DNA of 63,748 nucleotides, counting the filler, from Hausera hauseri (lineage: Eukaryota), in NCBI GenBank assembly GCA_046269625.1. It is 11 parts of 11 records of this genome, joined end to end, with 100 filler letters (N's around TTAATTAATTAA, not from the genome) between each part and the next. Parts side by side here need not be neighbours in the genome. Positions count along the whole stretch, not along the records: positions 34,173 to 39,785 come from JBJURY010220630.1; 10 more parts are not named here. One strand, 5' to 3'. Positions 7,110 through 55,900 of the stretch are shown here, piece by piece; the stretch's first letter is position 1, and every line of letters begins with the position of its first letter. Under the pieces are notes generated by a model, which did no database searches, had not been told where the DNA came from, and was given only the letters and a program-made list of their open reading frames with translations. The position numbers and the translations under genes were made by a program.

Positions 7110-7185
7110 TATCGATTTGATTCTGGTTCTGCGATTGAGCTGGAATTGTGGTTTAATTGCTGCACTGTTTTGCGAAAAGGGATCT

Positions 7186-7368
7186 GAATGAGAAATTTCA
7201 TGAGTTTTATAGTTATTTTGGTGTGTGTGTGTGTCTAATGACCACCACATAACGAATGAAAAGGAAAATACTGTTCCTAGTGTGCGTGGCGCGGGTGTAT
7301 GCATGAATAATTGCGATGACGTCAGCTGTGGCTGGTCACGCGATTTTATCGGGCAGTAGCACGTGCTA
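7186..7368 (-). promoter_or_regulatory. Compact Pol II promoter for the 5142-7109 gene
   Basis: TATAAAA (7205-7211, minus), Inr-like TCATTC (7186-7191), CRE TGACGTCA (7317-7324), palindromic E-box TAGCACGTGCTA (7357-7368). Confidence 0.5.
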
Positions 7369-7379
7369 GTGCTAGTAAG

Positions 7380-8920: not shown

Positions 8921-9200
8921 CAATTGATGACGTCTTCTTTTCTTTAGTTGAACGTAGATTATAGCGCCTATTCGGCCTTATTTCGGTTTTGACTACCCTT
9001 TGGACTGATGTGACTTCCTCTTTTCCATTCTTATTTATGTAAACTGTAGTCGGCGTAGTCCTTGTAACTTCGTAAGGTCCTTTCCCTGTCCTGGTAAGCT
9101 TAAGAGATGTGCCTTTTCTCGCTACCGGGTAGTGCACATAAACCCAATTTCCTGCTTCCCAATCATGCGGTTTAGCCTTTTTGTCATATTGTCCTTTAAA

Positions 9201-12200
9201 TTATTCTTGGTATTCTTTAGATAATTCTTTGGCTATTTCCCAACATTTCTGTAATCTGGACTGCAATACTTCAACGAAGTTTTGCTCTAAATCCTCCGTT
9301 CGAGCTGTATATGGGATCAATCTTAGGTCTGTGGGCAATACAGCTTCTCTACCATACGTCATAAAAAATGGCGTAAATCCTGTTGCCGGATGAGGGGTTG
9401 TATTAATGGCGAACTGTGTGCCCTCCAAAAACTCATCCCAATCCTTTTGGTCTTTCGCAACTACTGTTGACAAAACCCGTATAACGGTTGCGTTCATTCG
9501 TTCGACCATTCCGTTACATTGGGGGTGATAAGCCGTGGTAGTTAATCGTTCGATCTCAAAAATCTTGGAAATTTTCACGAACAACTTGCTCGTAAAGTTT
9601 CTTCCTCGATCTGCCAATATTTGTTCGGGCAGCCAGTATCTACAGATGATTTTCCGTACTACCGCTTCTGCTAAGGTCTCAGCCTTTTGATCCATTAATG
9701 CTATAAGTTCAACGAAGTGAGTCAGTCGGTCAATACAAGTCAGAATATATCTATTATTCTTGTGAGTCGTAGGCAACGGTCCTACAATATCCATAGACAT
9801 TGCTTGCATTGGTCTATCGGGTACGTCAATAGGCTTGAGTTCAGCCACATAATTCTTTACTTTCTTCTGTTTGGTTGCACATACTTCACAAGCATTCACC
9901 CAATTCTTTACGTCAATGTAGATGCTCGGCCAGTAGTATTTGTTTAATATTCTTTCCAACGTCTTTTCCATGACATGTGTCCGGCTAAATATGAGTCATG
10001 TTCAGCCATGAGCACTTCTGCCCTTAAGTCCTTTGGTATGACGACTAGTTTTCGTCCCTTTCGTTCGTAATATAATACGTTCTCTTGATTGGAATCTCCA
10101 GTGGTGCAGTATTTGTGGCCATATCTTCGCAAGTGCTTCCACAATTGGTGTCCTCTGGGGGTTTTATTATCGTTCACGAATTCTACGATTTGCCGTATAA
10201 CATTGTCCTTTCGCTGTTCAATAGTAATTTTTAGTGCCTTGTCTAAAGTAAGGGTTCGTTGTCTCTCTACTAAATTTTCGAGGTGAGCCCTCCTCATTAC
10301 TGTCACTGCGCTAGTTTTGGTTTTAAGTCTAGATAGTGCGTCGGCATCAACATGTTTGTTTCCAGGCTTGTATTGAAATTCGATGTTGTATCGTGAGATC
10401 TCTTCAATCCATCTGTTTAGCCTACAAGTTGGATTGTTCGCTCTACCCTTTAGAGTCGTAACTGCCTTATGATCTGTGACGATTATAATCTTTTGTCCGT
10501 AGACGTATACATTAAAATGTCTCAAGGCTTCTTTTACCGCTAATGTTTCCAGCTCTGTTACGGAGTAGTTCTTCTCAGCTTTCTTTAGTGAACGTCCTCC
10601 ATATGCAATTGGATGTTCCAGTTCTTCGTCTTCTCGCTTTTGTGCTAATTCGTATCCAATACCTTCCTTACTAGCGTCTGTTTTGATTATGAACGGTAGA
10701 TTGAAGTCAGGATATCTTAAAACATGCTCACTAGTTAGAATTTTCTTCATCTCATCAAAAGCCTTTTGTTCTACGTCGGTCCATTTCCATTTGATTCCTT
10801 TTTTCAACAAACGGTATAGTGGCGCATTTATTTTAGCGTTTTCTGGCACATAGGTGGCATAATATCCACATAATCCCAACCAATGTCTTAGTTCCTTTTG
10901 GTTCTTGGGTTCTATGCAGTCTGATATTTTACTCAATAATGACTTATCCGGTTTCGATCCTCCTTCTCCTACTATATGTCCAAGGTATGATACGGCATTT
11001 TGGGCCCATTTACACTTCTTGGGGTTCAATTTTAGTCCTGCCTGTTCCAATCTCATAAGTGTATCCTCAATATCCTTTAAATGGTCCTGTTCTGTTTTTG
11101 ATGCAATCATAAGGTCGTCCAAGTAGGCGAATGCGTGTTCCAGTCCCATCAGCATTTGGTTCATCATACGGGTAAAGATGGCTGGTCCGGTGGTTATCCC
11201 AAATAGCATAACATTAAATTCGTATATGCCGTCGTGTGTCTTAAATGCCGTTTTGTAACGGTCTTCTTCTTCTATTTCTACCTGCCAATATCCAGATTGC
11301 AAATCGAGTGTAGTAAACCATTTTGCTCCCGAAAGTCTGTCTAAAGCTTCCTTTACCGATGGTAATGGGTAAGAATCTTTCATCATCAATGTGTTTAACG
11401 CTCGGTAATCGATACAAAATCGGTGCTTACTGGTACCTTTTTTCTTAACCATTAATATCGGTGAATACCAAGATCGATAGCTCGGTCTAATTATGTCGGC
11501 CTTTAACATTCGTTCCACTTCCTTAGTTATCTCTGGTCTTAGCGAATGTGGAGGAGGATACCATTTTGGCATCTTTTGATCTTCCAAGTCTATTTCATCG
11601 TTAGATCCAGGCTTCTTCTTAAGCGGAATTGTGAGTCTTAAAGCTTTCGCTCTACCAATATCTTCTTCATCTTTTGCGATAATTGAGCTATAGCGACAAA
11701 GTAATTCGTAGAATTGGCAATACGCTTCTGGCGAAAATTTTGTTTCAACGTGGGACGGAAATTCGGCACCCCTATACGGCTTTTCTTCAATAGTAATTGA
11801 CGAAACTCTATGCGTATGTCCCAAAGTGGTATTGGCGTAAAGTTTGATCGCAGTAGGTGCGTTATTCGCTATCCTAATGGGTACACGGCCGGTTGATACT
11901 CTCGTTAAGACGTTGCTGAGTGTAAGATTTGGGTTAAGCGATTCCTTCGGCTCGAAATATACTGGTTGATCGTCGTCTTGCCGTATTTGAGCGTATATTA
12001 ATAATTCAGTTCTAGGTGGTATGTTTTCGTCTACCGGAATCCATACCTCTCCTAATTTCCTATCTTTGGTGGTTTTAACTCCTTTTATTGGGCCTAGTTC
12101 TATCAGTTTGCCTGCATTGAAATCTATCGCTATATTGGGCAATTGTCTTAATAAGTCGCATCCTATTACTACGTCATCCGTCAATTGTTCCATTACGGAA

Positions 12201-12553
12201 AATTCGTGATGAAAAGATTGTCCCATTATGTGAACTTCTGGTTTCCAACGAAATTTGCTTTTTGATGATTGCCCGAAAGCTCCAATACTACCTGGATCAG
12301 TCGTGGGAGGTGGATACAGTTGTTTCCGTAAGAACTGTGGTATTGAATCGTACTTTATCAGCGATATCTCTGATCCTGTATCGATTAGCGCATAAACTTC
12401 CCAGTCTTCCAGCTGAATTTTTGCGAAGGGTCTTCCTTCGATTACTGTACCATAATAATTCGGTGCTTTACGAGGTTGTCGGACCATGGATACCTTATAA
12501 CCGTTTATAGTGACTTCTGTACTTCCGACCGGCTGGTCTACTAATTGTCTCAA
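9201..12553 (-). pseudogene. pol: Pol: aspartic protease, RT, RNase H, integrase (Ty3/Gypsy order)
   Basis: ALIDTGSEIS; RFCIDYRALN; LDLQSGYWQV; YLDD; KTDAS..IAYGGR..NYSVTELE; HDSYLAGH..CEVC; MDIVGP..DRG..GMVERMN. Confidence 0.97.
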
Positions 12554-12871
12554 TTTCCCGATTAGATAGAGTTCGTTATCTGTACTAGTCGCATTTTCTA
12601 CTCCTTGGCCTCTAACTGGGGGCTGAATATTCGAGTTCTTGAGATTTCGTGTCTTACTGCGTCGCGTAAATATCGATTGTATTTCGTTTGGCTTGGGTAT
12701 TCTAGGCGAATAGATTATACCGTGGTCGTCAACCGCTGGTCAACGATACAGAGCGGATGTTCTTTCCGTTCCGTGGATCTTACGCAATATTCCGTATCGT
12801 TTTGTTCCTTCGTATGGATCCTCTAGATTAATTGGCTGTCGATAGAGGTCTGTCTGACACGAACTCAGAGA

Positions 12872-14884
12872 TTATTTCTCACAATCTTCATATATCGTTG
12901 CCGTCGGCGGCAATACCGGTAATGGTAATTTCATAACGGAGTAATTTTTATGTCGGCCTATTCTGGAGGTGGGGTCTCCTCCCTTATGCTCGTCATCGTC
13001 CGAATTATTTCTTCGCATTTTACTTTCTATGAATTTTTGCCTGTAATTAAATATGCGTCTTTTACGCTTTCGATTGTGATAACCCACATGTCGCTCTACC
13101 TCTGTTTTCCATTTACTTTCTTCATAAGCCCTCAAAAAATTACCAAAAGGAGTGATAATGGCTGTTAGGATTTTGCATGAGAATCCCGTTAAGGTAAATA
13201 TCTCGTACCCATTTATAATCGCTTGGATTATCGCTTTTATCAATTGAATCAAGAAGTATATCGCTAGAAATCCTGACGCGGCTTGTCCGAATATAAGGAA
13301 TCTTTCCCAAATCTTGTATAATATTTCTGTGGTTACCTTTTTGTAATAGACAACACCTAGCAACGACTCCCATTTCGCTTGATATCGTGAATCTTCCAAT
13401 ATTGTGTGCATTGCTCTGTTCAATTCGTGCGTTTGCTGACGAGGAAAAGCAAGAAATTGTCTGAACGCCTCTACTTCTTTCGGTCGATAAATACCTTTTT
13501 CGGCTGTGTCCTGAAATTTATCATCAGTTATTCCTTTTACTAAGTTTGTGCCTGTCAACTTGATGGGTGGTGCAATAATACCACCGTTTGGCAAACTCAC
13601 CCAATCGGTTCCGCTTCGCCTAAACATCGGCTTTCCTAAGCTGGTTTTACAATCTTTCAAAACCGTTGGTTGAGTGGCATTCGTCAACAGAACTCTAGTA
13701 ATTGGCGTTGCCAATCTCGGTATATCCTGATATATCACTGGAAGCTCTTGTATACATCTCTTCTCTTCCACATTAATCGGTACGTCTTTCTTCTCGCACT
13801 CATACGTCAATAGCACTTCTCCGGTTACTCGTCCGAAAACACCTTCCTTCATCGGAATTATCAGTGACGCCAGCTCTGGATTGGCATAGATTAGAGCTAA
13901 TTTAGTTCTCATAATTTCCAAGTCTAATTTACAATCGTTTGTTACCATTTTGTGGTATAACTCGGCTATTCCGGCTTGTCCTTTATAGTAAAAGTAGTCA
14001 TCTCTATTCTTCAGATAATCCTCGATTCGGATATCTTGAGTCTCAAGTTTAAATATTCGGGCATTTATTTCAGTCTTAGCTACAAAAAAAGCTTCGTAAT
14101 TAGTAGCATACATTACGACGTCGCGTCGAGTGAGCATAGCCTTCTTCACAAACTTTAATCCATGGGCATCAGAAATTAATATGGTGGAGGTGGACTGTTC
14201 AGCTACATCTTCGCGTGTTTTAGAATTAGTCTCTATATTAGTTATGTACCGTTTTCCAGTCGTTTCGTTGAATTTGAGTTCTTTAATCCCAATGAAATTA
14301 CAATCGGTTTTAGCTGGTGGTTCCCAAATTACCACTGAGCTCCGAAATGGACAAGTGCCGTCCTAGATGTGACATTTGTGGTTCTCGGTGTAGAACTTGG
14401 TGACACTGTGGAACATTACTTTCTGTATGCGCATTTCGGTTTCGTAAAAATCCACTACTACAATGTTTTGCTTTAATCCCTTTCCCGTATCGTATTCTAT
14501 GCCTTGACAATGTCCGGCGTGCATATCCAGTCGTCCTGCTGCAACCTTATATACTCTAATTATTTTCCCTTGTTGCATCTCCAATTCCATCCCATACCAG
14601 TTTATTCTTCCAGTTTCTCTGGCCTGTTTGCACTTCTGACGCTCTAAATAAATCGGAATCGGCGGGGTGGTTGGTTTGATTATTGACGAGTGTCCGTGTA
14701 TCAATCCACAGTGAAAAATACTGCGAGATCGTCTTAACATACATTCTACTCCATCTAGCGCGATTAATTCCCGTTGTTGGTATAATATGTAATCCTTTTC
14801 CTTTGTCTCCAGCTTGTGCGGTCTCGCATCTTCGCACATTTCCAAGTCCATTAGGGAGTACTTCTGGCCAAGTCTAAATCTGTC
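12872..14884 (-). pseudogene. env: Chuvirus-like (class III/gB-related) envelope glycoprotein, one internal TAG at 14363-14365
   Basis: Cys pattern C..LYQQ..VEC..IFHCG..H..C..G..AGR..GHCQG..C..DGTC..VIWE..C; LYHKMVTNDC; FGRVTGEVLLTYEC..C..ELPV; C-terminal hydrophobic WERFLIFGQAASGFLAIYFLIQLIKAII. Confidence 0.85.
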
Positions 14885-29750: not shown

Positions 29751-30341
29751 NNNNNNNNNNNNNNNNNNNNNNNNNNNNNNNNNNNNNNNNNNNNTTAATT
29801 AATTAANNNNNNNNNNNNNNNNNNNNNNNNNNNNNNNNNNNNNNNNNNNNCCTTGATGAATTTCTTCTTGTTTCAACTTAATCACTGCCGCATAAACTGT
29901 CATTTTCGATTTAAATGCTGATAAACTATCTGGTTCAGACATGTTTTTCACAAGTGACACTTACACAGGGGTGTTTATATAAACTTTGCGAAATTTAGAC
30001 AAATTGGGGGTGGAAAAAGTGAAACCCAACAGCGGCCAGAATGTACTAGGGGGTTGGATTAGTGAAACCCAACAGCGGACATATAATGTACTGAATATTT
30101 AATATTGAATATTGATTTCCGATCTTGGGGGTTGGCCGCGTGTCGTCACATCCCTATACTCAGGAACATCGAAACAAAGTAAAATAGGTATACCAAAGGT
30201 AACATTAACAACTTATGAACTTCTAGAACAATTAATTAAGAAAGCTAATCCAAATCAACTCAAGAAGATACGAACAATTACAACAATTCCATTAAAGTCC
30301 ATAATATAACCGCTAGAAATTCCATATCGCAAATTACAAAA

Positions 30342-30590
30342 TTGCTGCAGAATTACAAACTGCACGGAGGCCTAAATAAAGCATTGAAGCTATTATTAAA
30401 GGAATGTGATCAAAATCGACTACAGATGGCATTGAGATGCATAGTGTTCAGCTTTAAAAATCAAACAGAGGTTGATGCCAAGTTACACCATATGGTAAGG
30501 GACTTAGCCCATTACATGAATAAACTAACGAAAGATTGGGTAACCAAACAAGGAGGTTGGGATGACATGCTCAAGAAATTTAACCATACA
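30342..30590 (+). pseudogene. Bcl-2-family-like domain (clear BH2, degenerate BH1)
   Basis: ..LAHYMNKLTKDWVTKQGGWDDMLKKF fits the BH2 W-x3-GGW motif with its preceding helix; in frame with the glycoprotein signal peptide. Confidence 0.65.
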
Positions 30591-30619
30591 ACACTAATGT
30601 ACCCCAGAGATACCAATGT

Positions 30620-32425
30620 CTCAGATTGGGTTGTACAAATTATTTATCTGCTACTATACTTGATAACCGTGAGCAGTTTAAAAACCACGAAAGCGTTAGA
30701 AGCCCATGATTGTTCCAAACTGGAAATAACAACCAGACTTTCACTGGTAGATATAGGTAAATATCAAAACGCTAATCCAATATCAGTAAAGAAAGAAGGT
30801 CCTTACAACTATAACTTGTATCAAAGAATCAGCTATCAACAAGTGCAGGTAAAGGAATGTGAGCTTACAACTGTAGCCATAATTCGTGGAATTCAGTAAT
30901 TATTCCACTCGGACTACCTAAATCCGTGAAAATAATGGCTGAAAATTGCAGAAAAGCCATGGATTCAATTAATGTAGGCCTTCAACAGCCAGTACAAGCA
31001 GGCATAGAAAACGAGTATATTCACGCATAGTTACAGCCGGTAAAATATAGATTGGATACGGTGGAGCTTGTAAAGGAGAAAGTATGATGATAAATGGACA
31101 AAAGAAATTCGCTGTGGTGCAAATAGAAGATTATACTGTCACTATAAAAGAATATAAAGCAAATTTCAATGCAATCGCAGGAAAAATGTTAACCGCACCA
31201 TCCTGTACATATTCCGATGGAGTACCCTAGGAGAATCCAACCTAGTTTGGGAAAAAGTACCTATGTATGAAATACAAGATTATTTATATTATAATGACGA
31301 GTACCAAGAACCTATACATAACCATAATATAAGTCTACCTAGTCCAGGAACCTTGAAACAGACCACTTTCCTAAAATTTTTAATGTCATCCAGTGACAAA
31401 GATGACATCGTACTGGCATGTAAAGGAGCAGTATCTACTTGTGGATCAAATGCAGTTTACTCTACAAGCTATGAAGACCTATTCGTAACAAACATAACAG
31501 GAAATACAGGATAGTTGCTAGCCAAAGATACAAAGTGGTATCTATATACAAATAACAAGATAGACTATATCTATACCGAAAAAATGGATTTGGTCGAATT
31601 ATATAATATGATGGTTTTGGGAGATTGTAAAATCAATCAAACATTGAAGCAACATAACTTAATACTAGCCAGAAAATTCCCAGAACATATTGCCATAATT
31701 ATGGGATATCGCCCTGGAACATTTCGTAGAGTACAAGGTGAAATACTCCACGTGTATCAATGCCCTCCAATAGAGGTAATTCCAATAACAACCACAAGAG
31801 AAAATTGTACAAACGAATTAATGGTCCAAAACAACGATAAAAATATAAATAAAACAGGATATGTTCGCCCTGTTACCCTACCGAAATTAGCTTTGCACCG
31901 TGTTACAAAGACTTCTATCCAGCCTTCAAACTTAGTGACGGAATATGGCCCAAAACACGCCAACCATCTATGATGAACATACCACAGACGATTGGACTAC
32001 TACCATTGGATAAAGGCATGAAATTTAAAGTAAATAAAGAACTCCCCAGCAGCGGATTATATTCATTAACAGACCTGGAAGCAGTAAGAAAACATGTATT
32101 GTTTCAGAATATCCGAGAGAACATCATCACAGAATTTGTATATGCTGTTACAAAAGTATCAGATGGTGTACCTAATTATGGAATGTTACTGCCAATCGAT
32201 CATTTAGCAAGAACAGCTAAAAAGGCCCTTTATGACTTTTGGAATAAACTGCTTATTTTTGGTCAAGTTATATCTGGAGTTTTGGGATATACGTTATAAT
32301 CACAACCATAATAGTCATTAAGACAAATAGGAGCTGCAAGAAATATAAAGAAAGCACGTGGTTCTACATGGCAAATAATGTTAGGATGTTTCCCTTCTAT
32401 GGCGCAATCAGTATTGATGTATTGA
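30620..32425 (+). pseudogene. env: Chuvirus-like envelope glycoprotein (multiple frameshifts)
   Basis: Colinear motifs with 12872-14884 in several frames. Confidence 0.85.
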
Positions 32426-32812
32426 CATACAACGAAACTTGACAAATTAAGAAAAGAACTTCATCTAACTCCAGAACTAGTACAACAGTTACAAGCCTTT
32501 ATTAAATTAACAGTGGAAGAATACCTGGTTAAATATATATTATTGAGAAAAAAAGCTGGACAACACTTCAAACCAAAAGCACCAACATACTACAAACCCA
32601 AACCTATTGATGAATTTCCGGAGTATCCCGAATACGAAGAAATGAAGGTCACATCAATGCATGATCTTCCTATGGCAAGAGATCTAGATGAATACACCTG
32701 TTTACCAAGTACTAAGCACCCACCGAACGTATTCCGACAATATAATACCACATATACTGGACGGAATAATACAAAATTTATTTTTATAACCCAAACCACT
32801 GCTACAACAGGA

Positions 32813-34072
32813 AACAATCCCTATGTCCATGTACGATTTAATGGATTAAATATTATAGCACTACTAGATACCGGAGCATCCGTATCAATGATTCGACATT
32901 CTTACTTAACTGACGATCAAAAAGGAGCAATCATGCCCAGAAATATAGTAATAGCAGCAGCGAATTCCACTCAAGTGCAATTCCCAGGAAAAATAGACGT
33001 CAAAATAAGAATCGACGGTAACCTAAACACTATCACCTTGTTTGTGGTTGATGACAAAATATTGCCAGTGCCTCTAGTCATAGGAATGGATGTATTGTCT
33101 CAAATTTCAGGTCTCTCTATGGACTTATCCACAAAGACACTTAAGTATACTCTAACCAATTTGTCAATCGAGGATATTAGTATGACGTTAACTCATGATG
33201 TTATTATAAGCCCACAACAACAAGTAATGGTGGTGTTAATAATACCGCCACAATACCACAAGCAATATAGCATTTTTGAGCCAAACCTATATAATAACGA
33301 AAAATATAAGATTTCACAATATCCCTTATTTGTACCAAAAGGAGTACAACGTTTAGAATTGCCAATACAAAGCATCAATAAAAAGGCAATCAAATTACGA
33401 CAAAACCTCAATTTAGGACAATTACAACGAGTTAAGGTATGCGCAGCAACATTTCTGGTGGCAGATGAAAACATTGAATTCAAGGACGGCAATTTAAATC
33501 AATACCAACAGAAAATTATTACAGTTATTCCATAAATATCGAGATATTATAGCTGTGAATGATAATGACTTCGACAGAACCAACGTTATTCAACATCATA
33601 TAATCATCATATAATCCGTATAGAATGGGTGAAGTTGACAAATGGTTGAACATGGTATTATTAGACATAGTTTCTCTCTATGGACATCCCCAGTAGTATT
33701 AGTGCAGAAGAAGGACGGAGCACAACGATTATGTGTAGACTTCAGAGCAGTAAATAATGTTACAAAGAAGGATAATTACCCATTACCAAAGATAGACGAA
33801 ATGCTCACAGCCTTAAGAAATGCCTCAATATTCACCACTCTAGATTTGCAACGCGGATTTTGGCAAGTCAAAGTTGCCGAAGAAGATAAGCAGAAAACAG
33901 CCTTCTCTACAGGAACTGGATTATGGGAATTTAACGCTATGCCCTTTGGCTTCACAGGAGGATTTGCCACATTTCAAAGATGTATGAATTTAGTTTTGCA
34001 ACGAGTAACCTGTTGTATTGTGTACATAAATGATGTAGTAATATTTTCTGAAAATTTTGAACAACATCTAGA
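32813..34072 (+). pseudogene. pol: Pol (protease and RT N-terminal part)
   Basis: NPYVHVRFNG..ALLDTGASVSMI..LVIGMD; SLWTSPVVLVQKKDGAQRLCVDFR; LDLQRGFWQV. Confidence 0.95.
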
Positions 34073-34260
34073 NNNNNNNNNNNNNNNNNNNNNNNNNNNN
34101 NNNNNNNNNNNNNNNNTTAATTAATTAANNNNNNNNNNNNNNNNNNNNNNNNNNNNNNNNNNNNNNNNNNNNGAGAAATTGTTCATGTTCATATATGAGA
34201 TAAAGCACGTGAGTAATTGTTCATTTTAAATTAAAAATATAAAAGGACATTAAGATATAT

Positions 34261-34309
34261 ATATGAGATATTGTGTAAATTTAAATTTAATTTATACAAT
34301 ATTTCATAT
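34261..34309. promoter_or_regulatory. 21-bp AT-rich stem-loop just upstream of rep (candidate origin)
   Basis: ATATGAGATATTGTGTAAATT-TAAATTT-AATTTATACAATATTTCATAT, two G-T mismatches; no canonical nonanucleotide. Confidence 0.4.
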
Positions 34310-34317
34310 TTTTAAAA

Positions 34318-35860
34318 ATGTCTGTACCATCTTCGCATTTGTTATCGAGACCAGAGCGTAATTAGCAAGTAATTTAATTATTTATTTATTATTAATTTAT
34401 ACATTGTAAAGGGATATCGGAACAATTTTACGATTGGAAACGCAGTGAATGGGCAGTATGTCAGAATGTTCCCCGATGTTTCAGATGATCATTGCAGAGC
34501 ATTGCAGTACAGGTTTCCTGATCAAATCAGTGAACTTATTGTGCCGCCGGAAGGGGCAACATTTCGCCATTTCATGGCGATAATTAAGTATGACGATTCT
34601 GTTGATTTAGTTGTAAATATGTCAAATTATATACGCCTTTCTTTATTGTACAAATTTTATATGAAGGTGGTGGAAGATACATCTTCTACCGGTTTCCACC
34701 ACCTTCACTTCCTTTTTTATTTACGCAACCCTATGCGGTTGCATAGGTTTAGAGTTGTATTTGGGTTTAATTATGTTATCCCTTTTAGGAGTGATATCTT
34801 TGCCGTGTACAAATATCATCAAAAAGATATCACTCCTATTGTGTTTACCCTTCAGATCGGTAATCCCCCAATAGATATAAATAAAGAGAATACCTCGCGC
34901 AAAGCTTTGTATAGAATGTTCGATGATGCTCCCTCGGTCTCAGAGGCTATGCATATCATGAAGGAAGGAGACCGAGCGGAGTTCGTTACGCGACACAAGA
35001 TGTTGCAGTCATATGTCAATAGTAAGTTTAGGCCCAAGGTGTCTGTAAATAATTCCTTTGTTTTTACTATTCCCCCTATAAAATTTGATGTTGAGCGTGG
35101 GGTTAATACGGCTTTGTTGTTTGGATCATCCAATATAGGGAAGACCTGTTATGCCATGAGTCATGGCAAGAACCCACTTATTCTTCATAGTCTCCATGAC
35201 ACTCCTGCTGAGTGGTCATCGGAGTACGATTTGATAATCTTTGACGATGTCGGGTTTGGGGAAATGTTCCCGGACATCTTCTTATCTATTGTCCAATGCA
35301 ACCACGTACATGACAATCGGTCTATACGTGGGTTGTATAAGTCTGTTGTAGTTCCTAGTTCGGTTCGAGTTATCTTTACGTACAATAGTCAGTCCTCCTT
35401 TTGGCCTCGAAAGATGGACTTAAGTCAGAAGGAGGCTTGTTTGAAACGATGTCTCCTGTACGATTTAGGAGATTTTATGCTGTATTGTACAGGGGAAAAT
35501 AGGTATCGTTTTATTCAGGAGAATCGGGTTGACTTCCGTAGGTTAGCTGAGGAGTTTAGTGAGCCTCCCGCTATACCTGTTGTTATTAATCGGGGGCATT
35601 ATCGATCTGATTCTGTTTTATCAACTCCAGAATATGTACCCAATGATTTAGTTGTAAATATGTCAAATGTAAATAATTATCGTCAAACTTATCATCGTGA
35701 TGTTTTATCGCCTTTTCATATGTGTACAGAGGCGTGCTATGTAAATCCCGTTGATTTTATGAATACAGGTAATGACCCTACTGGTGTGCGTACTGCTCCT
35801 AGTATGGGTGAAAACAGTTTGAATTTGACTTGGGGTGTTGACAACCATATCACATTCTGA
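34318..35860 (+). CDS. rep: Endogenous CRESS-DNA-virus-like Rep (HUH endonuclease plus SF3 helicase); probable 5' exon 34318-34368 and 43-nt intron 34369-34411
   Basis: Motif II GFHHLHFL, motif III YKYHQKD, Walker A GSSNIGKT, Walker B IIFDDV, motif C IFTYN, Arg finger ACLKR. Phase-0 GT..AG intron joins ATG 34318 to the Rep frame, but the 5' exon has a TAG at 34363-34365. Confidence 0.9.
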
Positions 35861-35956
35861 TTGGTTGCTCATTTGGTGTGTTGTACTGTATATAAATTTT
35901 TGTGTGTAAATATGTGAATAAATAGTTTATTGTTTTTGTTCTTCATTTGTTTGCTA

Positions 35957-36536
35957 ATGTCTTATAATCCGGGCTTCCTTTCAAATTTATTGAAGTTAAA
36001 TTACAGTATTGACGCCATGTGTGATCATGTGCGTAATGTGGAGCGCAGATATAATCTCCCACCAGAGGAATTAGTTGATATACAACATGTGGCGCGTTTA
36101 TCCTTGTATAATCTATCCCTAATGAAGAAATTATTATGCCAGTATGATAAATTGTGCGACAAGTATTCAATCGAGGATCCACTGCATTTGTGCAGTATTT
36201 TGAAGTCTTATGCGGATGAGGATGATGGGATTCGGGATGTGTATAACTGCGTTCCTCGTACTGCTGAGGATATCTGTGAAAATCTCCATAGGGATGAGAT
36301 CTTATGCAGTCAGTCCCCGTTTCCGGTCTACGATTGGGGTAATGATTGCCTCATCTGTTTTGCATTGAGGGGTAAGCGTGCTCAAGGTATTTTGTTTTCC
36401 TATTTTTGATTTATATTTATCAGGTAAGTGGTTGGACCCCCGAATAGTGATGCGTCGAGCCGCATCTCCACTCCCGCTGACGACGGAGAAGAAGGATGAT
36501 GAGGATACGGAGCCTATGTGTGGTGATGTTGTGTAA
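35957..36536 (+). CDS. Spliced hypothetical gene downstream of rep (exons 35957-36386 and 36424-36536)
   Basis: TATATAAA ~35888; ATG 35957; 37-nt GT..CAG intron 36387-36423 keeps the frame open to TAA 36534-36536, overlapping AATAAA 36535-36540. Confidence 0.7.
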
Positions 36537-39500
36537 TAAACTTAGTGTGCCATGTCTTTGTTCTTTGTGTCTTTGTTATAATTTTTAGAGCGCTGCCCCT
36601 GTCTTTGTTTGAATGTCATATAATAGTTGTTGTAAATGTTATATTAATAAATGTTTCATATAAGCAAATCTTGTTTTATTTTCTTTTTACGTAAAGGAGT
36701 TAAGTAACAATACAGTTTTCAAAATTGTTGGTAATTATTTATATACAAAGTTACTGTATAGATACAAATAATTTTAAAAATATTTTATCCATGTTATAAC
36801 TAAAATTTTATAAAAAATAATTTAAGCTTTGTTTGCAAAAATGATATTTATATTATTAATTTGTATTTGAATAAGGAATTTGCAATAAAGCTCTGACTAG
36901 CAGTAAAGTACCTTCATTTATGAGATACGTTCATTGCTCTTATGCAATTCTATTAACAAAATTTTTCAATAATTGTCAATACACATGTAATAGTATATGT
37001 TGTACGAATGTAATTGATTGAGGTGGATCCATGTCAACAATTCTTAATTCCTGATTATTAAATGAAGATTAAGCAATTTAAGAATGACACATTTAAGAAT
37101 GACACTCGACATTATACAACAATGTCAGTTATTTTCATTATCTCTAAGGTATAAATTTTCTGAGAAAATGACAAACATCCAAATACAAGAAAGATTTTAA
37201 TTTCCAGAAAGTTGCCATACTGCATATAAAAGAATATGCAAAAGTTATTCATATAAATTTGAAAATAACAATCAATAATTACTATTGATTAGCCGTAAAG
37301 TAGAAACGGAAAAGGAGTTAACTAGTCAAATGACAATTTGAACGTAGTATCGCCTATATAGAACTAAAATATAAAATTTGATAATTTGACTTTGAAAAAA
37401 ATTTGTGTGTATTTCATAATTCTTGTGTTTGTATTCATTGTGTATTAAAAATTGTTATTGTTAAAAAAAACGTATTTATGATTTCATTACATACCATTCA
37501 TTTCAACCTTAAGAATTATAAGACACAAATTGTGTGAACTGTAAACAAATAAAATTCATCTTCACTACTTATTTGCCAAACTATGTACAATAATATTTAA
37601 AAATTATCATTGATAAATTGCTAAAAACAAGGATGTTTTTAAGACTTCGTAGTTCTAATTATTTACAATTGTCTTACAGTTCGTGTATGTGTGTAAAAAT
37701 ATTGTGAATGTGTGTTCATGCAATAACATTATAGAATTATAAATATCATGCAATTAGATTCCAATATTGCATAAGCACACAAACACGGCCTTCATTGCTA
37801 TGCAGATTTCAACTGTAAACAAAAATATAAATTTTGGTTACTATAAAGTCTTAAAAAACACCCATGTATATAAAAATTACTAAATTTTATTTTTATGGTT
37901 CTATATAGGTGGTACTACGTGACAGATGTAACTTTGATAAGAACTTCCGAATAATTACTGAACTTTATGTCCCATTATATAAAATATTGAAATTAATTTT
38001 TCCCAAATATCCTGATAGTTTCAAATTCATGGAATATGCTTCATCGGTATAATTTCTAATCATTTTCCAGTGATGTAATAATGTTAATGTTATGTTTTAA
38101 ATTCGAATGAAATTTATCAATTTTTGGTTCATGATAAAATCATAAATTCCATTTCATAATACTCATAAATACCATTTTTTCTTTTCATAAATATTGTTAA
38201 TATTGATTTTTACCAATAATACCTTATTAATATCATCACCTATTGCATCAGAGCAGATACTATGCTTCCCAATCGACCTTGGCAATGTTGCGTAAGTTTT
38301 ATCAAACGAATCAATACCATTAGGCAAACTTCTTTCTTTGGCATCAAGTGAATCTGTTTTCGAGCTCATTGATCTAAATAATAATAATAATAATAATTTC
38401 ATTTCTAATGTTAGAAAAATCTAAAATATGGTAGAATTAAGAATAAATAATTAATTTATCTTTTTTTATCAATATAAAACTTTATTAATTCAAATACAGA
38501 ATTTGTTTAATCGTAACGAGGATTGTGTACAGTGAACTCAACAGTTTAATCTTTAAATAGGTATTTCATAAAAATGCACCCGTTAATTTTGCAATTATGT
38601 AAAAATTTTTATCGGTAAATTTTGTAAAATTTTATTACTGGTTAAATAAATTTTCTTTTTTATTTATGCAGAAACGTCATATTAATATTAAAGCACATAT
38701 TTTAGCAAAAAATTAATTTTTCGTGCTCTCCGAAGTAACAGCATTTACAATCTATAAAGACAACACCGAAATCTGATTGGTCTGTTTAAGCCAAACAACT
38801 GATTGACAATTGTCGACTAACTTTACAACTGAATCTGATGTGTAATTTAATTTCTGAAAATTGATTTAATTTAATTGCACCAACTGAATCTGATGTAAAA
38901 TTTAAATTATTCTAGACGACTAATAATCCGATTTTATTTTAATGCAATTTTATGTAATGTAATTTTATTTTCTTGAAATGATATATATTTTGATTCCTAC
39001 ATACACCAGCAGTATTCTGGTTTAAAACTTAACTTTAAACTTTCCACACTGATTCAAAAGATGTCTCATGCTTGTGATAGCTATGTCTTGTCTACTGTCT
39101 TTTATTTTTCGATTGTTGTAAGTTATTTATTTAAGTACTCATTAAAAATTTTATTTTATCGCTGTGTATTTCCTTGTAGTATATTTATCTATTTAAAATA
39201 ATACCAAATAAATAAATAAATAAACTTAAATTAAGGCCCCCTCAGGTATAGCGTCCCAGCAGGACGCTTGTTCAAAATCAAGTAAATAAGGGTTATTCCG
39301 CTAGTGTGCCTCCTAGCGATCGATTCTCACAGTAGGACCAAATAAAATACGGTAACCCCACAGATTACTGCAAGAATAAATAATATTTAAGTTTGATGTC
39401 GCGAGGCCTAAACTATTTAGAACCTGTAACTTAACACAATTTTATTTGCAGCATTAATAATCTTAATTATTTCATCATCTTGACCTTTGTTTTTAGTGTC

Positions 39501-39885
39501 AAAGAGCTTCTTATTAACTACATGATAAGCATTCTTCGGTTCCTTAGGACTATTCATGTTACTATTTATAAACAAATCTTTATTTACATGTAAATTATTA
39601 TTGGCATATAAATCACTTGAAATATAAATTTTACCTTATGCAACTACACCTTGATTTACCTTACAATCACACCGGAAAAAACCGCTGTTTATGGCATTTT
39701 GTACTTTTACCTTGTAATTTCTACCGTTACTGGCGTGATGATAATTATTATAAATATGTGGATGTTTATGTGGATGTACAGAGAANNNNNNNNNNNNNNN
39801 NNNNNNNNNNNNNNNNNNNNNNNNNNNNNTTAATTAATTAANNNNNNNNNNNNNNNNNNNNNNNNNNNNNNNNNNNNNNNNNNNN

Positions 39886-40030: not shown

Positions 40031-41149
40031 TTGTGGTGCCGCGGACTAGGGCGCCACCATGGTCTAAATTGCAAATGTTATCAGAAACAAAAAATCCACA
40101 ACGATTCACCAGTTTCATTTGACGAAAGTTGTCGCTATAACAATCCGTCCGCAACGAAACTCACTCAATCTCGATAGTTATGCTTTTTTACTGATCTCAC
40201 AACTTTTGTCAATTAGATGTTCAAACTAATTCATACCAAACACAAAACAATATTCCAAATATGCAGGTCAGTATACTTTTTGTGGGGAAACATAACATCA
40301 TGTAATTGTGGACAAATGAAATTAATCAACCGTACCATCTTTGTTGTACAAATAACCAATCAAACTCCGTCAGTTTAATACATGTAAGAATGATAATAAA
40401 ATATAAAACCAGTCACTCTTTAAGTCTCAAACAATTAGCCTTCGCTGCAGGAGAAAAATTATAAGCAAGTAATTTCAGACAAAATGCAATCCATCCATCT
40501 AGCTGTGTGAATATGAATAAAACAGAAAAAAAAGAAATCATTTCAACACTGCGAAGAAATGTTGGCATATGATGTGTTTGAGACGTACACATTGTGGCAT
40601 TGTAATGTACGATGCAGGAACCAGTTATTATGTGAAACATAATAAAAATTTCTGTCGACTTGATTACGCTAAAATCGGGATTGTGTTGACTATGCAATAC
40701 GCTCAACATGAATTTCGAAATCAGATATTTGGTTAAAAATTACATTTTTCATTGACGTTATTCAAATCTATTTGTTGATAGTTTTAAGTATTGTTGCTTG
40801 ATAGTGTTTCTTGTTAATGAAATTATGATCAATAAAAAATTAATAATTGAAATTTGAAAATAAACATTACCTACGGGTCTTATCGTTGTTGTTTTGGAAT
40901 TAATCTTTTCTCAATTGATAATTGATATAAAATTGGTGTCAGAAACATCAAAGAAACTTTATTTTCGATTGCCTCATTTTTCTATCATGAATGCCGTTGG
41001 ATTATTATTTTCAAAAAATGAATATGATCATTTATCCTCTATCCTGTTGCTAACGTCAATAATGGAATATAAAACACACACAGAAGTTTATGTCAGTCTT
41101 CAATCGGATAAAAGGAACCACAATGAAGGAACTGTTGCTGGTAGCGGTA

Positions 41150-41476
41150 CAGTTCGTCGAAAACGACGAGCAAGTTCAATGTTTAATGTTTCTCAAAAGC
41201 GAGAATTGAAAAAGTTACCGTTATTAAAAGACACTCCGCCAGCAGAAAAAGAATTATTTCTGAAAAAGATTGATCAATGTTCTGTTGTGTTTGTTTTTGC
41301 CATAGATAAGTTAAGTGATTTGAAGGACAAAGAAATAAAACGATCGGCATTAAATGAATTGATTGAATATATAAATTGCAATAAAGGAATTCTAACGGTA
41401 AATCTCTATCTGGAAATTGTTAAAATTCTTGCTGTAAATTTATTTCGAACTCTTCCGCCGTCGAGTAATCCAACTG
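41150..41476 (+). pseudogene. PPP2R5: PP2A B56 (B') regulatory subunit N-terminal fragment
   Basis: SSMFNVSQKRELKKLPLLKDTPPAEKELFLKKIDQCSVVFVF..LSDLKDKEIKRSALNELIEYI..AVNLFRTLPPSSNPT, truncated after this point. Confidence 0.9.
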
Positions 41477-41489
41477 CTGCCCTTTGCCG

Positions 41490-42100
41490 TGCTACGGATG
41501 ATGCATATTATTACGACTACGAGGATTATTTTAAAGCAATTATTGAAGATTTCCATCAGATTACTAATCCTGATATACTCCATCCGACAGCCGAACTTAC
41601 CCAGAATTTGGAAAACAGTAAAACCGCTGCAGCTAACATTAAAAAACGTCTGCAAAACAAAACCCCAATTGGAATAAAAAATCAAATGATTAAAGCATTT
41701 GCTATTGATGATACTGGAATTATTTCCCAAAATATGTTTGATGCTCAAAGCATGAAGATGAAGAAAATGATATTCAGTCTGTGTTTGTTTAACGTGGCGA
41801 TCCTAGAGACAAAAAATATGGTTGTCTAGGGTTTAGTCTTCCGTATGACTTCAACGACACGGATTTTGAGATATCTATCAAACAACTTCCTAGTTTGATG
41901 CATCATGCAGCTAATATTTCAGTGATGCCGTTAGAGATGACATGAATAGATATAAAAAATACAACAATGCTGAAAATACTATTCAAAGCTTCCTTGACTC
42001 ACCCTTCCAAAGCATTCTGGAACAAGAGGTCAATAACTGTAATAAAATGCTCATTCGTATTCATCGAGGCATCAAATTGGAACAAGTACTTTTGGAGCAA
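41490..42100 (+). pseudogene. Scrambled dynein heavy chain C-terminal fragments
   Basis: NPDILHPTAEL; KKMIFSLCLF..LE.KKYGCLGFSLPYDFNDTDFEISIKQL across a frameshift; PFQSILEQEVNNCNKML. Confidence 0.65.
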
Positions 42101-42296
42101 GGTGACAACGTTGGTAGATTTTTTGAAATAAGTAATAATCAAAAATTTGGCCTAACACAATTTCAAGCTATGAAAGAAATATATGATAATATTTCAGGCC
42201 TGTTAACTATTGAAAATAAATGCACATGAGGAGGTTCTTCTATAGATGAAACAGTAGACACTCATTATTCGACGTTTGTGAGTCGTACATCTGGAA

Positions 42297-43283
42297 ATGT
42301 GCAAATTACGAATTACTCTGTTATTTATTGCTCTACGAAATGTGGACGTCGAATTTTTTAAATATCTTATTAATTGTGGAGCAAACGTTTTCTCAACTAT
42401 TGCAGCAAAGCGAAGAAATTTAGACTTAATAAAATTGCTGATTCAACACGGTATCGACCCAAAAGATTCATCTAGTCGCACGGCCCTAAGTTACTGTTTC
42501 ACAAATTGTTTCCGTCCTGGAATTGATTTATTTCTGAATAATATCGCTTGTAAATACACAGTTTCCAATTTTCAACGTCCTGCTTGCATTTCTAATGCCG
42601 TGCTAAAACGCCTGCATATTAATATCGAAAATTGTGAAGCCAGCATCCCGTATTTTGCTTTGGCTCTCCAATATGGTTCGGAAGAGGATGTTTTAACTCT
42701 CGTGCATTATGGTGCAAATTCGAATTCCGCATTTATCCATAATGGTGTAACAGTAACACCCACGTTTTTAACTTTGGAAAATGATTCTTATTCAAATCTG
42801 TGCAATTTGGTCAAATATGGTTACAATCTTAATTTTATCAGTCTACCAATTCAAGAAACATTATTGCATGCAGCTGTTCGGCTAAGAAAAACAAAATTCG
42901 CTCACGAACTGTTATTCTCCGACGTAAATGTTGATATTCGATGTCGGTTAGGTAAAGACGAGCAATATTTACCAATTCATGTAGGTGCTCAGAACGGTTT
43001 AATTGCAATTATAGAGACATTGATTTTGTTTGGAAACAGTGTTAATTCAATGATTACATTGAAAATGGTAGAGCGTTTCAGCCAATTGCATCATGCAACT
43101 TTAAATGATCTTACATCCATTGTTAAATTTCTTACTAAACAAACTTCAGCTAGCGTCGGAAATAATCCCGAAAGCAAAATTGGAAAACTTTATTACAATT
43201 ACAGAAAATTTGCTGTTAGTCACTCCGTTCTTATATTGAACGACCAAAGAACAAGTGTTGGCGGAGTTAAAAAAGGTCAGTGA
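42297..43283 (+). pseudogene. Ankyrin-repeat protein (partial or degenerate)
   Basis: TLLFIAL..KYLINCGANV; LIKLLIQHGIDP; TLLHAAVR..VNVDI; LPIHVGAQNG..LILFG. Confidence 0.8.
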
Positions 43284-52959: not shown

Positions 52960-55900
52960 CTTGTCATCGTTGAATGACAAAGCAACCTTTTTATTTGTGA
53001 TGGTATACAGCTGGTGCTAAATCGATCGTATGGTCGTTTGAGACACAACATCCTTTCCTCCTTCTCTATTTTTTCCGTCTTCTTGTCAATCACGGCGGTA
53101 ATAACAGTGAATTATTTCTGTCTGTTTCAGCTGGATGCCGTTTGCCCGCATTTTCGGCCCACAGTCCGTCAGCAAACTGTAATACTTTGGGCGCAAAAAT
53201 ATCCATTACCTGTATTGAACCGGGCCTTCTCTTTCGTCCTTGAAGCAGCCGATTTTGTTTGTTATCGCGCTGCTGTACAGTGGATGGTCCGAAGGGTAGT
53301 TGAACGTGTCCAGTAGTCCATCTGACATCATTTATCGGAGCAGCTGGTCTCGATTAATGTTTTTCAGTTCAAGGAAGAAGCTGCCTGTGTCACCGGCAAC
53401 GATACTAATCTCACAGCTGCCGCCGCCGCCGACAATTTGCCGGTAACGTGCCAAGTCGCGATATTGGAGCTCGTACATTCGCAACTTGCTCAGATCCAAT
53501 ACCACTTGTTCGATGTAGCTCGGCCGGTCCAGTACGACTTCCTCCTGGTTTAGAAGCACGGAGACCAATCCATCGGCATTGTGCATTGACCGCCTGAACT
53601 GAGCTTTGATGGTTATGTAACCAGTCGTTTTTCGTTGTTGCACAGGCGCACATTGAGCCGCTTCTTCAGATTTTCCACTGTTTTCCCGTCCAGTGAATTG
53701 TTCTTGAGCTTGTAATAGTTCTTTTCAAACTTTGCACAAGCTGCATCTTGTTTCCAGAATTTCCATCGGCGCCTGATTGAAGCGAATTTCACGATGCAGC
53801 TGTGTGACGCGTACACCGAGCTGCATGTAAAACTGCAGTAGATGCCAATGAACCACGTAATTCGATTTGGGTTCATGCGTCATGAGTAGTTTCTTTACTT
53901 TTGAGCCGCCGGGTGGACATTGGCTAATTGGTGCGACCGGCAGTTCATCCAGAAAGTCATACAGCTCATCCAGTACCACGAGATCAACTTCCATTAGGTA
54001 GCCGACTGAGCTGCTTTCTGTAGTGTTTGCTGAACAGACTGTCCAGCAATGTCCAGTTCTTGTTTGTCCATTATCCATTCAAACAAACCGTACGGCGAGG
54101 GTTGCGAAAGCGCCCAGCCGTACAGGTTATTAATATCAACGTACAATATTGACGTTGTATCATCGCTGGTTACGTGATGCTTGTTGACAAATGTCATGCC
54201 GCCTCGAATACCAACGTCAAACAGTCGATACATTTGCAGGTCTTGTAGCAACTCAATGTCCCGATCCAGTGACATTAGTGCCGATGCCCAACTCATTCCC
54301 GGTATTGAGTAAAAGTTGAACGGTTCCAACCTATCTTCCTACAAAGCTTTAACCCGAAATGTCTAAAACACCGGCTAATAGGCACACATCGATCTTTAGA
54401 TACTGAAGCATGTAGTCCAACATGTTTCTACAACCGAGCTCTGTCCAAGATTCCTGTGGTCTTTGATATTCATCTTCTGTGATAACTGTCCATCGCAGCG
54501 GTAATTCCTCTCTTGTTCGGAGTCGCTTATATAACACGGCAAAGTCATACGGGAATATGCCTTTGCTGCGTGCAATATGTGTGGGGAACTGCGTTAGTGT
54601 TAGCAGCATATCCGACAAGGCATTTACGAGCTTTTCTAGAGACTCAATGAAAAACTGCAATGAGTCAAGAAACTGTATCTGAAACCGGTTTATGCGTGCC
54701 GATAGGGACAGGTACTTCTCCATCGTTGTTGGGTTTGTGGATAGCTCCCTGTGCGGAAATCCATTTATGGCCCATTTCAGAATATGATGACAGTCATAAC
54801 TCCTGAAGTGATCCGGTACTAGCCGCTCTGGGAATATTTTGTGGTGGCACAGGTAACATTCATCGGTGGCTACAAACGTCAGGCGTTCATTTTCATCCGT
54901 CCAAATCAGGGGTTTTGTGCTGTTATTGCGATAAGATGGTGCGATTTCCTTTTCTACTATCGTTTCCAAACACTGCAGGAAATCATGCGCACAGGTCCAG
55001 CCGTGAAAGGCGTAATACTGCGGCTGACCGACCGCTATTATTGGGACAGTCAACATATCAACGGCGATTGGAACGTGTTTTTGATCATACACGTTGTGTT
55101 GTAGTAGAATTGCCTCAATATCGGCATATACTACATATGCCGGACTGTCTGTTTTTAACCAATCCGTAAACCTGAGTTACTTTTTGACGGGAATGACATA
55201 CATGTTTCTACCGTGATATTTTCGACCTGAATCCATGCAGACATACAGGACACCATTTACAATTTATACGCTTTTTGATGAGTAGATGGTGATACATGAT
55301 AAGTAGTCTGTGCAAGTTTCTTAGTGCCACGTAATTAAATTTATCTGCTTGCTCCAGTAACAATAAATTTACTACTGAGTGACCACTTGGGTTCCAACTT
55401 CAATAGAGTATATCTACATGAGGGTTTTTGTAAATTTCGTCATGCGCCGGTATTTCTACGACTGTGTTGTACCGAACACGTTGATTGTCAGTGTCGGATT
55501 ATGTCGTTAGAAAGCCGGAATGGATTTCCGTTTTATCGGAATCCAGCTTTCATCGAAATCCAATTCAGAAAAATATTTCTCATACCGTTTTGGAGTAGAT
55601 GCTCTATGTCTGTCCACTTCGTCATATTTCAATACCGCCAGAATACTGTAAAGAAAACAGCATTTATCGTTAGTATTTTTTACATTCACTAGCGCCAGAG
55701 ACTGCTTCAGAGCTGCAGGTGTCAGTATGAATGATCGTCCAGACAAATATATCACATCACACGACTTTGTTAGGATAAAGCCGAGAGTGACATTTAGTAT
55801 AATTCGCCATCCACTACCCTTTTCGATGTAGTTGACGATTTTCTCCTCGAACTTTTAGCCTAAGTCGTCAACAAAATCTTCAGAATACGGTACGGCTCGA

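Follow-up and report, generated by a model that had tools for sequence, protein, structure and literature searches.

A Rep-encoding element in the genome of Hausera hauseri, probably an integrated piece of a small single-stranded DNA virus of an unclassified lineage

How did a gene for a viral-type replication protein (Rep), preceded by a hairpin and followed in the same orientation by an orphan gene, come to lie in the genome of Hausera hauseri (GenBank assembly GCA_046269625.1)? An earlier note on this DNA had proposed two answers: a divergent lineage of single-stranded DNA (ssDNA) viruses, or a capsid-less mobile element carrying Rep. The window, by which we mean the whole stretch of DNA that was analyzed (63,748 nucleotides), consists of 11 contigs of 4-10 kb with ten identical artificial 100-nt spacers between them, each composed of 44 N, a 12-mer with stops in all six frames, and a further 44 N (e.g., 34073-34172 and 39786-39885). 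Because all ten gaps are this same spacer, the order of the contigs across them is uninformative, and a Ty3/gypsy element to the left of position 34073 was for this reason rejected as a genomic neighbor. The element studied here takes up the left 2.5 kb of the contig at 34173-39785 (Table 1).

We read this element, with a probability of roughly 0.6, as a young, integrated piece of a small ssDNA virus. The virus would belong to an unclassified lineage, likely with invertebrate hosts, and its Rep likely stands at the base of a Rep clade that also holds the planarian element PEVE. The locus carries an identifiable Rep with catalytic and helicase motifs, a hairpin, and two tandem gene units, each equipped with a TATA box and an AATAAA signal and matching one another in codon usage. 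Integration is favored by the 3 kb of 26%-GC DNA that follow in the same contig and by the metazoan gene pieces present in the window.

The Rep gene, its hairpin and its predicted intron

All searches with the Rep protein were restricted to the open frame downstream of the predicted intron, in which an in-frame Met at 34466 opens 464 codons (34466-35860), 33 codons before motif I. A full HMMER scan of 1.84 billion proteins recovered 324 relatives at E<=1e-3, the best of them at E 1e-18 with 28% identity over residues 87-342; identity to the best relatives ranges from 23 to 28%. Atlas features gave a value of 0.97 to the Reps of the Cressdnaviricota, the Pfam family Viral_Rep was matched by 15 of 20 aligned rows, and the family profile of the Rep matches the solved Reps 7lar and 6h8o. 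The single sequence by itself had no match in Pfam, PHROGs or the solved structures of the PDB, and a word-seeded homolog search recognized no relative among 2665 candidates with the single sequence and one among 7998 with the alignment. Viral contigs searched with the single Rep and phage records searched with one of its relatives (P0008) gave no result, while the prokaryote genomes contributed one short contig only. A single-sequence structure model of the Rep was unusable, its predicted local distance difference test (pLDDT) score being 30.7.

The hallmark of Reps from circular, Rep-encoding ssDNA (CRESS) viruses, an HUH endonuclease fused to a C-terminal superfamily 3 (SF3) helicase, is present, as is the HxH/Q signature of motif II with its upstream Glu. 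Residues H79 and Y117 are invariant in 20 of 20 aligned rows, and so are G220, G225, K226, D261, N307, and R328 of the helicase part across the same number of rows. Hence the claim of the earlier note that all HUH and SF3 motifs are in place stands for motifs II and III, Walker A and B, motif C and the Arg finger; it fails for motif I, which is degenerate and has Ile where CRESS Reps have Thr. Judged from its sequence, the stretch 34466-35860 encodes a very divergent CRESS-type Rep whose catalytic residues are retained. The C-terminal extension, put at about 120 residues in that note, is real and comprises 136 residues beyond the Arg finger. As a distinctive trait it was rejected, since relatives have it too: extensions of at least 100 residues occur in 7 of the 47 Reps of the PEVE-holding clade (clade median 56 residues). 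An exact 25-nt direct repeat, with copies 1041 nt apart in the endonuclease domain and in the extension, exceeds the longest repeat seen in 500 codon shuffles (15 nt) and suggests that sequence was recently copied within the gene, or that the assembly was joined here.

Upstream of Rep lies the strongest hairpin of the window, the best of four with at least 15 pairs, whose strength was reached by one in 1000 shuffles of the 148-nt region; a separate calculation gave a z of -2.44. On the plus strand, both of its non-Watson-Crick pairs are G.T. The hairpin stops 9 nt short of the Rep ATG, where CRESS origins are typically located. A nonamer scan found no canonical nonanucleotide at the hairpin, and an Rfam search gave no match.

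Between a short upstream ATG exon and the open frame of Rep we place a 43-nt intron in phase 0, and the coordinates proposed for it in the earlier note proved correct base by base, as did the single TAG within the upstream exon; splicing itself is predicted. This intron and the one in gene 2 have GC contents of 9% and 19%, vs. 41-54% in the four flanking exon stretches, and low-GC GT-AG stretches of 30-55 nt set between GC-richer sequence occur in only these two places of 34173-36700. Together with the predicted last exon of gene 2, which runs into AATAAA, this contrast gives good circumstantial evidence for splicing. The Rep acceptor is the less common AAG. Since the Met at 34466 precedes motif I, the Rep intron would be dispensable. 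If Rep does not start at this downstream Met, the TAG of exon 1 is likely a lone mutation from the time after integration. An in-frame intron in the AT-rich patch at about 34600-34666 was considered and rejected because motifs I and II would lose their conserved spacing if it were removed. No spliced host gene that could gauge intron size was recognized among 51 of the 70 short open reading frames (ORFs), or substitutes, of the window, so that an adaptation to short introns of this host, as proposed in the earlier note, is a conjecture.

Gene 2 and the capsid question

The second gene follows Rep after 96 nt in a compact layout, its TATA box lying inside the likely 3' untranslated region (UTR) of Rep, upstream of the likely poly(A) signal of Rep. 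Its own TATA box, its predicted 37-nt intron and its stop overlapping AATAAA were all found where the earlier note had placed them. The product of about 180 residues contains 10 Cys, 4 His and one CxxC, has a net charge of -8 and carries 4 Arg/Lys among its first 40 residues, i.e., no basic arm. The description of it as acidic and Cys/His-rich therefore holds, whereas its helical nature derives from a single-sequence model with a mean pLDDT of 40.7. Because the protein is acidic, Cys/His-rich, devoid of a basic arm and helical in this low-confidence model, a jelly-roll capsid is unlikely, in agreement with what had been proposed.

Relatives of gene 2 were sought widely: none was found among 18 homolog candidates, in the Atlas, in Pfam or PHROG families or among viral contigs, and no tblastn match fell below E 0.4 in 99 loci. 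The protein shows no likeness to ORF3L of PEVE and no LxCxE motif, and a fold search with the low-confidence model gave no match at E<=0.001. Its codon usage ties it to Rep: A occupies the third position at a frequency of 0.16 in gene 2 and 0.17 in Rep, compared with 0.27-0.45 in 12 other ORFs of the window, and the synonymous choices of gene 2 fit Rep best (-153.2 vs. -164.6 or lower for these 12 ORFs). A layout of TATA plus a 9-mer, a pattern picked post hoc, is present twice in the 63.7 kb, once in front of Rep and once in front of gene 2. Because its codon usage is closer to that of Rep than to that of the 12 other ORFs, gene 2 is likely part of the element and not a host gene. Small Cys/His-rich proteins with acidic tails serve as regulators in several small DNA viruses.

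No capsid-like ORF was found on either strand of the 5.6-kb contig, whose left side is cut 88 nt from the hairpin; since the contig ends there at an artificial spacer, absence of a capsid gene is not demonstrable from it. An antisense ORF at 35943-36350 was rejected as a capsid gene, as it lacks an early Met and departs in its codon pattern. Of the 48 related viral contigs, 41 carry an ORF of at least 200 residues with a basic N-terminus, 34 of these on the strand opposite to Rep, so that a capsid gene out of view would be the norm. The large ORFs of PEVE run away from Rep, on the upstream side of Rep.

Table 1. Features of the Rep-encoding element (positions along the window)
Feature	Position	Strand	Remarks
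Upstream region of Rep	34173..34317	+	AT-rich (18% GC); TATA-like boxes 34238, 34256; left side cut by contig end
Hairpin, candidate replication origin	34261..34309	+	21-bp stem (19 Watson-Crick + 2 G.T), 7-nt AT loop
Predicted Rep exon 1	34318..34368	+	ATG 34318; 17 codons; 41% GC; TAG at codon 16 (34363-34365)
Predicted Rep intron	34369..34411	+	43 nt, phase 0, GT-AG, 9% GC
Rep ORF (HUH endonuclease, oligomerization region, SF3 helicase)	34412..35860	+	Frame open to TGA 35860
Rolling-circle replication (RCR) motif I	34565..34588	+	Degenerate, without usual Thr; Ile in conserved Thr column
25-nt direct repeat, first copy	34603..34627	+	Endonuclease domain
RCR motifs II and III	34691..34825	+	HLH 34700-34708; YxxK with catalytic Tyr 34814-34825
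SF3 helicase motifs	35123..35449	+	Walker A 35123-35146; Walker B 35231-35248; motif C 35369-35386; Arg finger 35447-35449
C-terminal extension	35450..35860	+	136 residues beyond Arg finger; no family match
25-nt direct repeat, second copy	35644..35668	+	Same frame, in extension
Intergenic stretch	35861..35956	+	96 nt; TATA 35889 (gene 2); AATAAA 35917, likely poly(A) signal of Rep
Gene 2 exon 1	35957..36386	+	ATG 35957; 143 codons; orphan rich in Cys/His; stop at 36409 if unspliced
Predicted gene 2 intron	36387..36423	+	37 nt, phase 1, GT-AG, 19% GC
Gene 2 predicted exon 2	36424..36537	+	36 codons, 54% GC, acidic tail, TAA TAA overlapping AATAAA (36535-36540)
3' region	36538..36770	+	Three GT-rich 10-mers (36553, 36568, 36600); second AATAAA 36646

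Kinship of the Rep and comparison with known systems

A scan of viral contigs with the Rep alignment yielded 48 loci, one of which (L034) is the planarian element PEVE, as told by the names of its four proteins. In a FastTree of 178 rows (the window Rep, 134 of the 150 listed matches and 43 of the 52 locus ORFs; rows shorter than 270 residues were dropped), the window Rep fell into a 48-row group with PEVE (Shimodaira-Hasegawa support 98), and the PEVE-holding clade of unclassified Reps is a working group of 47 rows taken from this tree. An IQ-TREE of 58 rows built on a better alignment has the window Rep on the PEVE side as well, and a careful tree of 39 rows chosen from these 58 splits 20 outside rows from the window Rep and the clade (97/87). 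The window Rep has the longest or second-longest end branch in every tree.

Profiles and motifs point to the same side. The endonuclease part scores 21-24 bits with PEVE-group profiles vs. 1-9 bits with those of four other groups, and the middle part 27-29 bits vs. 1-18 bits. A Thr in motif I, called absolutely conserved in PMC8780604, is present in 4 of the 40 clade rows that have a residue at this position, compared with 110 of the 117 other rows; the Ile of the window Rep conforms to the clade pattern. The two residues Trp-Pro after motif C are found in the window Rep and in 40 and 44, respectively, of the 47 clade rows. With the single Rep unmatched in Pfam, relatives at 23-28% identity, long branches, and gene 2 as part of the element, the suggestion of a divergent ssDNA virus lineage fits what we found. 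No description of a Thr-less, PEVE-holding Rep clade was found in open-access text; the GenBank submissions of PMC11071296 and the trees of PMC11463337 may include members under other names, and passages of PMC9241645, PMC11463337, and PMC10433990 contain nothing on it.

PEVE, cited in PMC3198968, PMC9241645, and PMC10269781, resembles the window element in several respects: its Rep belongs to the clade favored by profiles and motifs, it has a Thr-less motif I, and a co-oriented orphan ORF lies beside Rep. Its motif I moreover seems to be out of frame with motif II across an AT-rich stretch ending in TTTAG, which would be consistent with a short intron (weak, 1.1 bits). It differs in that its Rep is only about 19% identical and is not the sister of the window Rep in any free tree, in that its orphan ORF lies upstream and has no similarity to gene 2, and in its terminal inverted repeats and large opposite-strand ORFs; it has no hairpin comparable to that of the window, and the predicted intron of the window lies upstream of motif I. 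As an observation on PEVE itself, a motif-I-like stretch on its large segment (L049:3958-4140) stands in another frame than the annotated Rep with an acceptor-like site in between, so that splicing of the PEVE Rep is probable and its annotation probably falls short, given a weak score. The Rep of Periparus ater CRESS-DNA-virus sp. (QTE03536.1, in the same cluster as P0008) comes from the same favored clade (25% identity, E 2e-13), yet it has 302 residues and almost no extension, and the virus is unclassified.

CRESS-like Rep elements are endogenous in eukaryote genomes (Liu et al., 2011, PMC3198968), and CRESS capsid insertions are present in parasitic flatworms (PMC10269781). The window element would share with these cases the integration of small ssDNA virus sequence in an animal genome, and differs in that a hairpin, two promoters and a further orphan gene, likely spliced, accompany its Rep. 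A canonical nonamer stem-loop, an ambisense layout and a Thr in motif I characterize the flatworm virus DiCV, all unlike what is in view of the window element. For the Rep introns of Geminiviridae and Genomoviridae a single origin at a single position has been argued by Zhao et al. (bioRxiv 10.1101/687855). These Reps are spliced, as is predicted for the window Rep, whose intron differs in lying in an N-terminal leader and in belonging to a Rep of another kind; because position and Rep kind differ, the intron, once confirmed by RNA, would have been gained independently.

Alphasatellitidae are capsid-less circles with Rep as their single gene, a canonical nonamer and an A-rich tract. With this family the window element shares a stem-loop and Rep with no capsid in view, and it departs from it in having a second gene and no nonamer. 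CRESS-type Reps are also found in the linear ssDNA genomes of Oomyviridae (Lineavirales), whose hosts are given as stramenopiles in PMC12451638, and parvovirus-like contigs with an auxiliary CRESS Rep are reported in PMC11071296. Because CRESS-type Reps thus occur in linear ssDNA genomes too, a circular form of the window element should not be assumed.

Explanations of the element and their meaning

In the living virus that we envisage, Rep would bind the AT-rich hairpin, the Tyr of its motif III would nick one strand, and its SF3 helicase would unwind the DNA while a host polymerase copies it by a rolling-circle or rolling-hairpin route. Host RNA polymerase II would make two separate, spliced and polyadenylated mRNAs. 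For gene 2 we envisage a small accessory or regulatory product that would bind zinc and has an acidic tail, not a shell protein; the capsid gene would be on another segment, or outside the contig to the left of the hairpin.

A number of observations weigh against this reading, several of them concerning placement. The clade was defined on a tree that contains the window Rep, all rows were selected by likeness to this Rep, and the trees hold no named CRESS family, so that they assign the Rep to none. An IQ-TREE of 59 rows made from a fast alignment placed the window Rep with another group, with a long-branch warning, before the 58-row tree moved it back, and constrained searches on the 58-row quick tree gave a higher likelihood for both alternatives. 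The careful tree sets the window Rep outside the 17-row core of the clade (98/95), and the approximately unbiased (AU) test on this tree rejected neither placement in the other group (p 0.283) nor placement next to PEVE (p 0.195). Scores of the helicase part do not tell the groups apart (90-103 bits vs. 90-97 bits for two other groups). Moreover, the virus-host junction is a predicted one, as is the splicing of Rep and gene 2, and alternative donors and acceptors lie near both introns (among them an in-phase donor of gene 2 at 36372). A zinc-binding accessory or regulatory role for gene 2 is a guess from composition, given a protein with neither homolog nor fold match. The hairpin, finally, stands between TATA and ATG and has no nonamer; because it overlaps the promoter, a transcriptional role is an alternative, and it may be a promoter or 5'-UTR structure instead. 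An initial placement of the Rep as nested with PEVE was dropped in view of the clade core of the careful tree and the alternatives that the AU test leaves open. What the phylogenetic check proposed in the earlier note has delivered is a CRESS-type Rep with the PEVE-clade side favored and an unstable position; by odds of about two to one, the long branch of the window Rep is either basal in the unclassified PEVE-holding clade or its sister.

Only 145 nt separate the contig end from the Rep ATG. On the right, the approximate edge of the element is where the T>A skew fades, within the 3' region of Table 1, and the composition stays AT-rich across 36.6-36.8 kb with no break to mark a join; the right-hand 3 kb hold no long ORFs. 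No second copy of the element is visible in the window. Around the element in its contig, whose left end is missing, neither terminal repeats nor a target-site duplication are visible, nor PEVE-type terminal inverted repeats or ambisense large ORFs.

We regard a capsid-less replicon as unlikely. It would be a helper-dependent satellite or one segment of a multi-segment element. Hairpin, Rep, and gene 2 would make up all of its roughly 2.5 kb, and before it integrated a helper would have packaged it, or it would have persisted in the nucleus as a plasmid. The unit does seem complete from the hairpin to the second poly(A) signal (about 34260-36770), neither strand of the 5.6-kb contig has a capsid-like ORF, and PEVE proteins are filed under two element types, a small segment being mentioned by Liu et al. 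The 88 nt between contig end and hairpin are too little, however, to show that a capsid gene is absent, and the capsid-like ORFs of 41 of the 48 related contigs speak for a capsid, though almost all of these contigs lie outside the PEVE-holding clade. A more far-reaching proposal appears doubtful to us: an undescribed family of invertebrate ssDNA replicons in which a Thr-less Rep nicks a nonamer-free AT hairpin, spliceosomal mini-introns were gained independently of geminiviruses, and a zinc-binding regulator stands in place of any capsid gene; its members would be satellites or nuclear plasmids, with PEVE as their only named relative.

It is improbable that the element is a piece of a larger DNA virus which captured a Rep of this clade, with gene 2 as one of its orphan genes. 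Such a virus has a model in a 58-kb metagenome contig (L058, L099) that holds three such Reps, two of which fall in the clade, along with repeated orphan genes and a thymidylate-kinase-like ORF, and CRESS-type Reps occur in parvovirus-like and adomavirus genomes according to Buck et al. (PMC11071296). The hairpin directly before Rep and the intact catalytic motifs nevertheless suit an autonomous replicon, motif II is eroded in the two L058 Reps, and the 3 kb to the right of the element are not gene-dense. Improbable as well is a free, non-integrated virus that the assembler misjoined to host DNA: the sequence is assembled in fragments (11 contigs of 4-10 kb), hardly any decay is seen in the element, and its right flank shares no clear repeats with the rest of the window, but the TAG in exon 1 suggests decay and the AT-rich composition runs unbroken through the presumed join at 36.6-36.8 kb.

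Very improbable, in our view, is a rolling-circle transposon driven by Rep, with copies arising in the host genome and no viral phase. The host-like splice and poly(A) signals and the contig break beside the element, as at repeats, would suit it, and Rep-bearing repeats are described for truffle by Liu et al. (PMC3198968); against it stand the single copy in the window and the lack of visible terminal repeats or target-site duplication. Replitron-type elements are not known to have a helicase, which counts against it as well. That Rep inserted by chance next to a host gene, namely gene 2, a possibility the earlier note had named as fatal to its own proposal, is the least credible of all: the gene is an orphan with ordinary eukaryotic signals and no viral homolog, but its codon usage is like that of Rep and unlike that of other window ORFs, it shares its promoter layout with Rep, and its TATA box lies inside the likely 3' UTR of Rep.

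Some further features were observed along the way. The GT-rich 10-mer found three times after gene 2 (36553-36609) also occurs three times near the ends of PEVE (L049 at 47, 5265, and 5644), is absent elsewhere in the window and is found once each in four other loci of the 98 scanned; it was spotted post hoc, its orientation to Rep differs between the window element and PEVE, and it may be a poly(A) downstream element. The right flank contains a 38-nt inverted repeat (37342-37379 / 37883-37920, 79% complementary, 503 nt apart), possibly a miniature inverted-repeat element, and the right end of the contig a broken ORF on the minus strand (39234-39785) without a family match. The window at large is dense in mobile DNA and contains animal gene pieces, e.g., of Headcase. 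Ty3/gypsy elements at 30249-34072 and 7788-14884 carry Monjiviricetes-type fusion glycoprotein genes upstream of protease and reverse transcriptase (RT), one of these elements with a weak Bcl-2-like stretch (30249-30896; E 0.055). Host gene pieces without introns (LIM, PP2A B56, ATP:guanido phosphotransferase, ankyrin repeats) follow an RT fragment on the same strand at 40521-43280; the minus strand carries a piece of a protein-primed type B DNA polymerase (Polinton-like) at 54352-55176 and a 745-codon ORF without Pfam or PHROG match at 5145-7379. Among the related loci, the 58-kb metagenome contig (L058:4896-7267, L099:4845-5666) seems to be a large DNA virus that captured and multiplied Rep, and a bacterial metagenome-assembled genome includes a 976-bp contig (L100) that has a Rep of the broad type and is probably a virus fragment binned there.

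Since endogenous Reps are common and spliced ones already known, the kind of element is not new; it is the lineage that gives it value. A Thr-less motif I is common to PEVE, itself rarely mentioned in open-access text, and at least 47 mostly unnamed Reps, and through a near-intact genomic copy the neighborhood of PEVE gains a candidate origin, a gene layout and a link to a host genome. The Rep and the hairpin form a pair with which one may test how a Rep without the motif-I Thr recognizes an origin without the usual nonamer and, if its junction is confirmed by RNA, the predicted intron would represent a second origin of Rep introns.

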